Positions 118-20,786 of a stretch of 27,338 bases of DNA are shown here, one piece after another (the stretch's first letter is position 1; every line of letters begins with the position of its first letter). The stretch covers positions 1-27,338 of the forward strand of contig JBBSVU010000015.1 of NCBI GenBank assembly GCA_038046645.1, written 5' to 3'. The DNA is from an archaeon. GTDB taxonomy: Archaea > Iainarchaeota > Iainarchaeia > Iainarchaeales > 0-14-0-20-34-12. The notes under the pieces are model-generated. The model saw nothing but the letters and a program-made list of their open reading frames with translations. It was not told the DNA's origin and did no database searches. Made by a program: the position numbers and the translations under genes.

Positions 118-123
118 TCCGCC

Positions 124-185
124 TTTTCTTTTTTCTCTTATTAAGAGAAAAAAGAAAATGTAGGTTGCCAAAAGAAAAAAGAGAA
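124..185. repeat. Perfect 17-bp inverted repeat (124-140/142-158) plus a 16-nt mirror copy (170-185)
   Basis: TTTTCTTTTTTCTCTTA-T-TAAGAGAAAAAAGAAAA, then an 11-nt spacer, then AAAAGAAAAAAGAGAA (exact reverse of 143-158). Confidence 0.9.
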
Positions 186-296
186 ATTATTTTTCTATAG
201 CAATCCTAAAAATTTAACTTAACAAAGGTTCTGTAAAATGGTTTTTAAACCTAATCCTTAATTACTAAGTATAATTAAATTGAAAAAGGACTGATT

Positions 297-1339: not shown

Positions 1340-2008
1340 ATGATGAATTTTTCAAATGTTTTTGCTGAAAAAAGAAAATTGCTTATTGAATCAATGCTTT
1401 TAAGCGGTGCAATAAAATCTTCTTCAGTAAAGAAAGCCTTTTTGTCAGTAAATCGCGAGGAATTTTTCCCAAAAGACATTTTAGAATATTCTTATGCCGA
1501 TTCTGCCTTTTCAATTGGCTATAACCAGACAATCTCCCAGCCAAGCACGATTGCGATGATGCTTGAATTGCTTGCAGTTGAAAAAAATCAGAATGTTTTA
1601 GAAATTGGGGCAGGTTCAGGCTATGTTCTTGCACTTTTGGCCGAGATTGTTGGCAAAAAAGGCAAGGTTTATGGTATAGATATTGTGCCTGAATTAGCAA
1701 TGAATGCCCGCACAACGCTTGCAAAGCTTGGTTATGAAAATATTGAAATATATCACAGCGATGGAACCCTTGGATTGAAAGATTTTTCGCCATTTGACCG
1801 CATTTTGTTTTCTGCAGCATGCCCTGAAATTCCAAAGCCAGTGATAAATCAGCTTAATAAAAATGGGATTATTGTTGCACCCGTGGGTAAATACCAGCAA
1901 TGGATGCATATTCTGAAGAAAGATTCAGAAGGAAAGATTTCAGGAGAAGTTTCAGATTTAGGGCCATTTGTTTTCGTGCCGTTGAAAGGGAAGTATGGTT
2001 TTGACTGA
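1340..2008 (+). CDS. pcm: Protein-L-isoaspartate O-methyltransferase
   Basis: QTISQP, VLEIGAGSGY, PFDRI, VAPVG and C-terminal FVPL motifs. Confidence 0.93.
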   Translation: MMNFSNVFAEKRKLLIESMLLSGAIKSSSVKKAFLSVNREEFFPKDILEYSYADSAFSIGYNQTISQPSTIAMMLELLAVEKNQNVLEIGAGSGYVLALLAEIVGKKGKVYGIDIVPELAMNARTTLAKLGYENIEIYHSDGTLGLKDFSPFDRILFSAACPEIPKPVINQLNKNGIIVAPVGKYQQWMHILKKDSEGKISGEVSDLGPFVFVPLKGKYGFD

Positions 2009-5716: not shown

Positions 5717-5799
5717 ATTGCTTATGATAATTGAAACATTTATTAAGCTTTTATTGTGTTATATTTAATAGTAAGAGAGTTATTGGTTAGGTGATCTTG

Positions 5800-12775: not shown

Positions 12776-12815
12776 ATCATAATATTGCCTTAAACCCTTA
12801 TATATCTTTTGTTTA

Positions 12816-12834
12816 TTACCCCCCTAGGGGGTGG
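12816..12834. promoter_or_regulatory. Candidate TrmB operator in the divergent promoter
   Basis: Perfect CCCCCTAGGGGG palindrome (12820-12831) in an AT-rich intergenic region between TATA-like elements. Confidence 0.55.
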
Positions 12835-12882
12835 TTAAAGTATTAATACACTTAAGGCCATTATGTCTTAGAGGCAAAAAAT

Positions 12883-20279: not shown

Positions 20280-20300
20280 GATTTATCCCTTATTATTATA

Positions 20301-20320
20301 ATATAACTCTAAGGTTATAT
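20301..20320. promoter_or_regulatory. Palindromic operator ATATAAC-N6-GTTATAT upstream of paralog 2
   Basis: Same arms and nearly the same distance to the start codon as 16791-16811. Confidence 0.65.
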
Positions 20321-20341
20321 ATTAATCCTCCCTTTACTTAT

Positions 20342-20678
20342 CTATTTAGTCAAACCTTCCAAGTACCATCTCTTGTACTTTTCCCAGTTTTCTTTTATAT
20401 CCTTTTTAAATGCAATAATGGCTTTCTTGCTTATTTCAAAATTTTCAATTCTTTCAGTTTTGTAATCTGTACTTTTGTAGTAACGGTGTATATGACAGTA
20501 ACCATGTGTTGCATCATACTTTATTATTTAGTAAGAGTTACTCCCATATTTGCAAACTTGGATTACGCAAAAAGAAATTACTTTGTGTGTCTTGCCGTTC
20601 TTATTAATCAATAAGACTAGTGAGTCCTGCAGGCTTGATCCTAAGGTTGTTTTTCTTCTTTAATTGTGTAATTGTCAT
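20342..20678 (-). pseudogene. Disrupted putative toxin gene (YDxxHGxxHxH family); absent from the ORF track
   Basis: MTITQLKKK, frameshift near 20650, TTLGSSLQDSLVLLINKNGKTHKVISFCVIQVCKYGSNSY, in-frame TAA at 20528-20530, IIKYDATHGYCHIHRYYKSTD...IKENWEKYKRWYLEGLTK*. Confidence 0.7.
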
Positions 20679-20786
20679 TCTTAAGTAGATTGCATTAAGT
20701 GAAATAAATAGTTGCGGTTGATTTTAAAACAATTCAAGAGTTACTTTAATTTTTAATTTGTGGCAAAAACAACTTACTAATTAGTA

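Follow-up and report, generated by a model that had tools for sequence, protein, structure and literature searches.

In the available text of the reviews PMC7583470 and PMC13541005, the triple-helical RNA stability elements listed all come from eukaryotes, their viruses and their transposons. Elements of the ENE type are stem-loops whose U-rich internal loop clamps an A-rich 3' tract, and MALAT1 and MEN-beta are special among them in that the A-rich tract is genomic, a tRNA-like unit is cut by RNase P and the end is blunt (PMC7583470, available text). The word 'archaea' does not occur in that text, PMC13541005 mentions archaea only for riboswitches and H/ACA ribonucleoproteins (RNPs), and in our literature searches no ENE-type or tRNA-leader triple helix was described for an archaeon. 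Among DNA motifs, the closest class on record comprises the intrastrand triplex motifs PIT, BoxC and TMECO, surveyed in a database of bacterial and archaeal genomes (Holder et al. 2015, PMC4666352, accessible part). Here we describe an element at positions 118-185 of contig JBBSVU010000015.1 from an archaeon of the Iainarchaeota (27,338 nt analyzed as a whole, hereafter the window). It lies directly upstream of a tRNA-Glu(UUC) gene and combines three 16-nt tracts that are related to each other as the strands of a pyrimidine-motif triple helix would be. Tentatively, at somewhat less than an even chance, we read it as a transcribed 5' leader of pre-tRNA-Glu of about 70 nt, with a 16-bp hairpin and a third strand placed for such a triplex.

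On the tRNA-sense (minus) strand the element begins with a pyrimidine tract, Y1 (UUCUCUUUUUUCUUUU, 185-170), the candidate Hoogsteen strand, followed by an 11-nt linker (GGCAACCUACA, 169-159), a second pyrimidine tract, Y2 (UUUUCUUUUUUCUCUU, 158-143), the 3-nt loop AAU (142-140), and a purine tract, R (AAGAGAAAAAAGAAAA, 139-124), which is both the 3' arm of the Y2/R hairpin (hairpin B) and the proposed central strand of the triplex. The spacer GGCGGA (123-118) separates R from tRNA +1. The tRNA-Glu(UUC) gene (117-44, minus strand) is the only tRNA that ARAGORN reports in the window and matches the Rfam family RF00005 with 63 bits; its CCA end is not encoded, and the T runs of its trailer are T4 and T5 only. 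Y2 is complementary to R at all 16 positions, and Y1 matches R in parallel orientation, also at 16 of 16. Coordinates, sequences and order of the three tracts are exactly those that an initial annotation of this locus had given, and both matches were likewise reproduced. The geometry proposed there is right as well: a Hoogsteen pyrimidine strand with isolated C residues, a linker, a Watson-Crick pyrimidine strand, a loop and a purine strand form the one topology in which a single strand could fold back into an intramolecular pyrimidine-motif triplex. As DNA, Y2 and R constitute a perfect 17+1+17 palindrome (124-158, 35 bp), slightly longer than initially described. Because Y1 is an exact parallel pyrimidine image of R, a perfect homopurine-homopyrimidine mirror repeat results, with arms at 143-158 and 170-185 that are purine-only on the plus strand and 11 bp apart; it thus has the mirror symmetry of H-DNA-forming sequences.

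The exact relation of the three tracts is real and not a product of chance. A scan of both strands of the whole window for Y1-linker-Y2-loop-R arrangements returned a single site at each length from 8 to 16 nt, namely this element. The shuffle test suggested in the initial annotation was run with 300 dinucleotide-preserving permutations of the window; an arrangement of at least 8 nt arose in one of them and of at least 10 nt in none, versus the 16 nt observed. For a 16-nt pyrimidine tract with three C residues, one C placement in 560 yields a perfect parallel match. These counts bear directly on a functionless low-complexity origin, by which a template-switch palindrome came to lie beside a similar purine run by coincidence and was kept through the closeness of the genomes compared, and which we consider quite improbable. 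Such an origin would suit the A/T-rich, low-complexity region and the presence of eight other purine or pyrimidine runs of at least 16 nt in the window, all of them within open reading frames (ORFs) taken as genes. It would also be helped by the near self-mirror character of the tract: the 10-nt core AGAAAAAAGA reads the same in mirror image, and two positions therefore suffice for the mirror match. Nevertheless, it accounts neither for the complete lack of shuffled arrangements of 10 nt nor for the one-in-560 placement of C. We also know of no ordinary duplication or inversion that yields a mirror repeat.

Conservation was assessed in one relative, from which all figures below derive. The genome scan used a strict pattern of 26 specified bases spanning the tRNA D-arm and anticodon loop, and a single locus matched it, a 3,032-nt locus (L001) in a metagenome-assembled genome titled Candidatus Diapherotrites archaeon. 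It is a relative and not an identical sequence; of the third codon positions of rpl40e, UbiA and PCMT, 107 of 379 differ (28%). The element occurs once in the window and once in the related locus. The tRNA (44-117) aligns with 73 identities, no mismatches and one gap at the 3' edge, and the sequence downstream of it (1-43) with 13 identities, 3 mismatches and 16 gaps, positions 1-11 being unaligned. Over the element (118-185) there are 66 identities and 2 mismatches, both at 141-142 in the hairpin loop, where AAU is replaced by UCU; this loop is the only part that changed, and all 65 non-loop positions (the three tracts, the linker and GGCGGA) are identical. The confinement of both changes to the 3-nt loop has P = 0.0013 if they were independent and P = 0.044 if they arose in one event. 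Two or fewer differences would be expected at the third-position rate with P = 6e-8. However, other alignable intergenic stretches carry 12 mismatches in 156 nt, and versus this rate the 2 differences in 68 nt are unexceptional (P = 0.097); therefore the element is constrained about as strongly as the surrounding promoter-type regions. This last comparison is in line with a functionless origin, whereas the divergence of the sequence downstream of the tRNA beyond easy alignment, next to a non-loop element without a single change, argues against it.

Thermodynamic folding of the RNA with ViennaRNA, which has no triplex model, predicts the 16-bp Y2/R hairpin at -18.4 kcal/mol in both genomes (z-score -3.06 in the window and -1.91 in the relative). 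If Y1 joined this hairpin, up to 13 U.A-U and 3 isolated C+.G-C triples would result, 16 in all. The 11-nt linker should be long enough by our reasoning, because Y1 ends and Y2 begins at the same helix level. The C residues of Y1 are never adjacent. Since two or more consecutive C.G-C triples destabilise the MALAT1 and telomerase triple helices in cells (PMC7583470, available text), this isolation suits a triplex at neutral pH. The introduction of PMC4666352 states that the pyrimidine type of intrastrand triplex can form in RNA and the purine type cannot, so the order Y-Y-R on the tRNA-sense strand is the RNA-compatible orientation. An intrastrand pyrimidine-motif triplex would account, by one principle, for the three tracts as well as for the order and orientation in which they occur, whereas Y1 has no explanation in a hairpin alone, nor the third arm in H-DNA alone.

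The layout has much in common with that of MALAT1 and MEN-beta. In both cases two U-rich tracts are followed by a genomic A-rich tract and then by a cloverleaf (at this locus a presumed RNase P substrate), the U-rich strands are positioned for different roles, Hoogsteen pairing in one and Watson-Crick pairing in the other, and G/C interruptions fix the register; the A-rich tract here matches the two U-rich strands at 16/16 and 16/16 positions with this register. Beyond the layout the likeness ends, and the element is not a member of the ENE/MALAT1 family. It is archaeal, and its downstream unit is a real tRNA. In place of a stem-clamped U-rich internal loop it has an 11-nt linker, with Y2 running into R through a 3-nt loop, so that a simple fold-back triplex of 16 uninterrupted triples would result. 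Cleavage would be expected to leave a 6-nt 3' tail (GGCGGA) versus the blunt end of the known elements, and there is essentially no upstream RNA body, the next upstream feature being the divergent rpl40e gene. When the folds were searched for a clamp stem-loop, no lower stem closing Y1 on Y2 was seen, the linker offering at most a 2-bp GG/CC contact. Thus, the MALAT1/mascRNA-like character proposed initially holds for the arrangement of parts, and fails for family membership on account of the missing clamp, the missing RNA body and the expected 6-nt tail. In an Rfam search at E of at most 1, positions 1-600 yield 13 matches, of which the tRNA alone passes its gathering score; the mascRNA-menRNA match (18.5 bits, gathering score 42.5) covers the tRNA itself rather than the element. 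Nothing but the tRNA reaches the gathering score in the whole window, and the related locus has, besides its tRNA, only one sub-threshold match at E of at most 0.1.

In comparison with PIT, BoxC and TMECO, the element shares three consecutive triplex-compatible blocks on one strand (16/16 without mismatch, where at most one is allowed) and an intergenic position, as far as these motifs are characterized in the accessible part of PMC4666352. As a group, those motifs are mostly multi-copy and of the G/C-rich purine type, and their loops do not exceed 6 nt. TMECO, as described in the same part, is a G/C-rich purine motif with 9-nt stems, loops of 3-6 nt and many copies, whereas our element belongs to the pyrimidine type, is A/T-rich, and has stems of 16 nt with one loop of 11 nt and one of 3 nt; it is single-copy in 27 kb and located on the sense strand just upstream of a tRNA. 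Its 16-nt stems and 11-nt loop also exceed the ITxF limits given there (stems 6-15, loops 1-6). H-DNA- and cruciform-forming promoter sequences are a further point of reference: the perfect 16-nt mirror repeat with its 11-bp spacer, the perfect 35-bp palindrome and the divergent genes all resemble them. As structures of duplex DNA the mirror repeat and the palindrome exclude each other, because both use the arm 143-158; as a single strand, both motifs would combine into one triplex.

We regard an action of the element as DNA, not as RNA, in the divergent tRNA/rpl40e control region as a real possibility, albeit on balance an unlikely one; the initial annotation had raised it in the form of a cruciform or H-DNA. 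It could take the form of a non-B structure, i.e. a cruciform of the palindrome 124-158, H-DNA formed by the mirror repeat (143-158 and 170-185), or, as has been suggested for the bacterial PIT/BoxC motifs, an intrastrand triplex that arises while the DNA is transiently single-stranded; alternatively, the tracts could be three binding sites of a regulator with the core AGAAAAAAGA. In either version promoter activity or polymerase passage would be modulated. The perfection of both the palindrome and the homopurine-homopyrimidine mirror repeat agrees with this explanation, as does DNA folding, which predicts a hairpin on both strands (z-scores of -4.5 to -4.6), and intrastrand triplex motifs are a described class of prokaryotic DNA (PMC4666352, accessible part). 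The T-rich tracts would make productive transcription through the element awkward, and conserved arms around a free centre would also suit a dimeric DNA-binding protein. Paired palindromes are typical of operator regions, and a second imperfect inverted repeat, 161-179/190-208, adjoins the palindrome here. In this repeat the 5' arm (190-208, minus strand), which lies just downstream of a TATA-like box, pairs with 179-161, i.e. with the linker, which doubles as the 3' arm (hairpin A), and with the 3' half of Y1, over 19 nt with 74% complementarity; it is kept in both genomes, its purine arm being longer in the relative. However, a mirror repeat suffices for H-DNA and a palindrome for a cruciform, and the agreement of the three tracts on a single strand is explained by neither. 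Outside the 10-nt core, a mirrored site would present a different sequence to a protein, yet the mirroring of the flanks is exact. Finally, the sole box that resembles other promoters of this genome lies upstream of the element and points through it.

The latter box, P1 (220-207, minus strand), consists of AAG and the octamer TTAAATTTTTA in an arrangement like that of a TFB-recognition element (BRE) and TATA box, oriented towards the tRNA. The same combination of AAG with an A/T octamer (AAG+W8) is present in the correct orientation 28-57 nt upstream of seven start codons in the window, namely those of rpl40e (28 nt), TrmB (31), u565 (39), HD (43), u116 (49), u267 (53) and DUF655 (57). Using the spacing of 28-31 nt, counted from the G of AAG, of the two leaderless-looking genes rpl40e and TrmB, P1 is predicted to initiate transcription 2-5 nt ahead of Y1, at about 187-190, so that the leader would measure about 70 nt; the corresponding start zone was placed at 186-190 on the minus strand from the AAG+W8 geometry. 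The stretch 200-228, which holds P1, is identical in the relative, and positions 186-190 show substitutions and a 3-nt indel, i.e. the predicted start zone itself is not conserved. With P1 at this place, transcription of the element is predicted and looks likely. A second box, P0 (250-240, minus strand; AGG+TTTAAAAA, octamer at 249-242), is an alternative candidate promoter of the tRNA, or belongs to rpl40e on the other strand, and had been put forward initially as a possible promoter of the leader. Its predicted start would fall at about 219-222, about 35 nt upstream of Y1. In the relative, an insertion of about 80 nt at 232/233 leaves P1 on the tRNA side and parts the conserved P0 from the element, and we take P0 as a weaker candidate than P1 for the tRNA. 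The choice of start matters for the fold: with a start near 188, Y1 is left unpaired, and a start upstream of about 208 (e.g. from P0) lets 208-190 capture the linker and the 3' half of Y1 in the folds of both genomes. Two other searches contributed nothing to the promoter assignment. A Gibbs motif search in 20 upstream regions yielded an A/T-rich motif (...AAGC) whose positions scatter from -16 to -68, and we rejected it as a promoter model. A scan for sigma-70 promoters and hairpin terminators, based on a bacterial model, was uninformative for an archaeon; the 'terminator' that it called on the plus strand at 113-125 is the tRNA acceptor stem followed by a T-rich tract.

The insertion in the relative is an observation in its own right. 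It occupies about 1296-1376 of that locus, in the tRNA/rpl40e intergenic region between the equivalents of window positions 233 and 232, has imperfect terminal inverted repeats of about 13 nt with one mismatch, and folds into a hairpin of -18.5 kcal/mol. By these features it resembles a miniature mobile element or its remnant; alternatively, the window may have suffered a deletion. No further copy was found by BLAST in the window (best match 17 nt) or elsewhere in the related locus.

The DPANN archaeon Nanoarchaeum equitans reportedly has short or absent tRNA leaders and tRNA promoters at a fixed distance. The present locus resembles it in belonging to a DPANN genome and in having, in the window, an A/T-rich octamer whose centre lies about 25 nt before tRNA +1. 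By analogy, the palindrome centre TTAATAAG, at -29 to -22, could be the core promoter of a leaderless or nearly leaderless tRNA, the element would be untranscribed, and its A/T-rich homopolymer flanks would be rigid, histone-excluding or UP-like. The position of the centre in the window, about 25 nt upstream of tRNA +1, is compatible with this, the usual archaeal distance from TATA box to start being around 28 nt (PMC8553660, accessible part). A very similar octamer, TTAATAAA, precedes the FEN1 start codon at about -31 to -24, and transcription of T6 runs would be spared. We nevertheless judge this explanation improbable. In the relative the centre reads TTTCTAAG, with the tRNA and both arms unchanged, and therefore it is not a conserved TATA box. 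The 5' flank of the centre is a pyrimidine tract, unlike the A-rich ...AAG before the TATA-like boxes of other genes. A conserved A/T octamer 26-28 nt upstream of the tRNA together with an A-rich BRE is thus not what the palindrome centre provides, and in both respects, an octamer that is not conserved in one relative and the lack of an A-rich BRE, the locus differs from the N. equitans promoters. A further contrast is RNase P, whose RNP proteins are encoded in every archaeal genome examined in PMC6380272, in its accessible part. Moreover, the exact three-way match would be left unexplained. The caveat raised initially, that the palindrome centre is the tRNA TATA box, has accordingly lost weight.

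Oligo-T is an archaeal termination signal, and either strand of the palindrome opens with its T-rich run. The element might thus act as a bidirectional oligo-T terminator or insulator that stops stray transcription into the tRNA gene or the rpl40e promoter. Its T4CT6 runs on both strands and the T5-T7 runs that follow gene ends in the window are consistent with this role. However, no gene converges on the element, since rpl40e and the tRNA both read away from it, and in the relative the next gene beyond the tRNA shares the strand of the tRNA. The tRNA would also need a promoter within 143-118, where none is conserved in comparison with the relative, and termination makes exact palindromic or mirror symmetry unnecessary. 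A terminator or insulator is, in our opinion, highly improbable.

We return to the structured pre-tRNA-Glu leader. In the model that we prefer, transcription would begin at about 187-190, driven by the BRE/TATA-like box at 220-207, and would yield an RNA composed of Y1, the linker, Y2, the loop, R, GGCGGA and the tRNA in this order. If the region is transcribed, Y2 and R are predicted to fold into the 16-bp hairpin, and Y1, which the 11-nt linker attaches to the start of Y2, could lie in the major groove parallel to R as the Hoogsteen strand, a geometry that the sequence permits. A cut by RNase P at tRNA +1 would then free a compact leader whose A-rich 3' end is buried except for the 6-nt tail. 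The leader could be a nuclease-resistant by-product or small RNA, or it could act in cis as a fold that tunes transcription through the U-rich start region or the 5' maturation of tRNA-Glu. That the full triple helix forms and matters in vivo is a stronger statement, which we hold to be unlikely. Doubtful to a slightly greater degree is the most specific version, in which the leader of about 70 nt of this DPANN archaeon folds over its whole length into a fold-back RNA helix of 16 triples and is subsequently released by RNase P. Examined by eye, readings of the element as a leader-trailer pairing, a C/D box or a coding sequence found no support.

Several observations weigh against the leader and its triplex. 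The first of them concern transcription. The start is predicted rather than mapped, and the AAG+W8 pattern is loose, with 57 occurrences in the window, 41 of which are inside ORFs; in addition, the Gibbs search in the 20 upstream regions revealed no consistent promoter motif. The predicted leader carries two T6 and two T4 runs, and the tRNA trailer merely T4 and T5. This terminator objection is partly offset, because the sense strand of 24.7 kb of ORFs contains 25 runs of T6 or longer (vs 99 of A6 or longer, about the composition expectation), and thus T6 is no absolute stop in this organism; as a depletion test, the ORF sense-strand counts neither back nor remove the objection. A second set of observations concerns the structure. 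The three C+.G-C triples require protonation, and 16 consecutive triples would exceed any natural RNA triple helix, since natural structures have at most 6 consecutive triples and the crystal structure reported in the same source has 11 (PMC7102945, available text). Hairpin A would, according to the folding model, compete with the triplex, only if the start lies upstream of about 208. Almost no RNA precedes Y1, and therefore the structure cannot shield a long RNA as in MALAT1, and six nucleotides would presumably remain beyond the A-rich tract after cleavage. A last set concerns the comparison of genomes. The alignment suggested by the initial annotation confirmed that the tracts are conserved and, with one close relative and no tract substitutions, gave no three-way covariation; constraint on RNA and constraint on DNA are therefore indistinguishable. 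The conservation of the element is that of other intergenic DNA, as given above, and because the core AGAAAAAAGA is self-mirror, the distinction between a mirror repeat and a direct repeat with 2 mismatches hangs on two positions.

If the leader model is true in full, the element would give Archaea their first triple-helical RNA 3'-end structure and would surpass all other natural RNA triplexes in length, and it would represent an independent invention of the arrangement of A-rich tract and RNase P site known from vertebrate MALAT1; its role could be that of a nuclease-resistant small RNA or of a pH- and Mg-sensitive gate on tRNA-Glu maturation. Provided that the triplex forms, the design of a triple helix beside an RNase P site would reach Archaea and a genuine tRNA gene, and the locus would offer a minimal natural model of 70 nt for long RNA triplexes. 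Should the element act as DNA instead, an archaeal promoter region would provide a clear example of a conserved sequence capable of both triplex and cruciform formation.

Some further features of the two loci were noted. The spacer between rpl40e and UbiA (462-510) aligns to the related locus with 48 identities and 1 mismatch, against differences of 18-31% at the third codon positions of its flanking genes; it thus seems that strong constraint acts on short promoter-type spacers of this lineage. Downstream of the tRNA in the related locus, at a distance of about 55-185 nt and hence beyond the end of the window, a non-coding region with a long closing stem (1618-1752, plus strand) folds at -40.7 kcal/mol (z-score -3.26; 1 of 200 shuffles folds as well). 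Rfam offers no match for it at E of at most 0.1, and it is possibly a small RNA of an unclassified kind.

The window, archaeal DNA with a G+C content of about 34%, encodes class I lysyl-tRNA synthetase (LysRS), FEN1, AMP phosphorylase, a UbiA prenyltransferase and L40e, the latter with an NCBIfam match (E = 4e-13, 48.7 bits) slightly below the 54-bit cutoff. Only 2,571 nt of it are non-coding. Neither strand of a stretch of about 500 nt at 20280-20786 has an ORF of at least 45 amino acids, and no Rfam family reaches its gathering score there; such a length is unusual in a compact genome. Apart from the tRNA/rpl40e region, divergent pairs are formed by FEN1 and a helix-turn-helix (HTH) protein, with a control region of 74 nt (5717-5790), and by TrmB and an HD protein, with one of 107 nt (12776-12882). 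TATA-like boxes are readable on both strands of these two regions, and the TrmB/HD region also contains the G/C palindrome CCCCCCTAGGGGGG.

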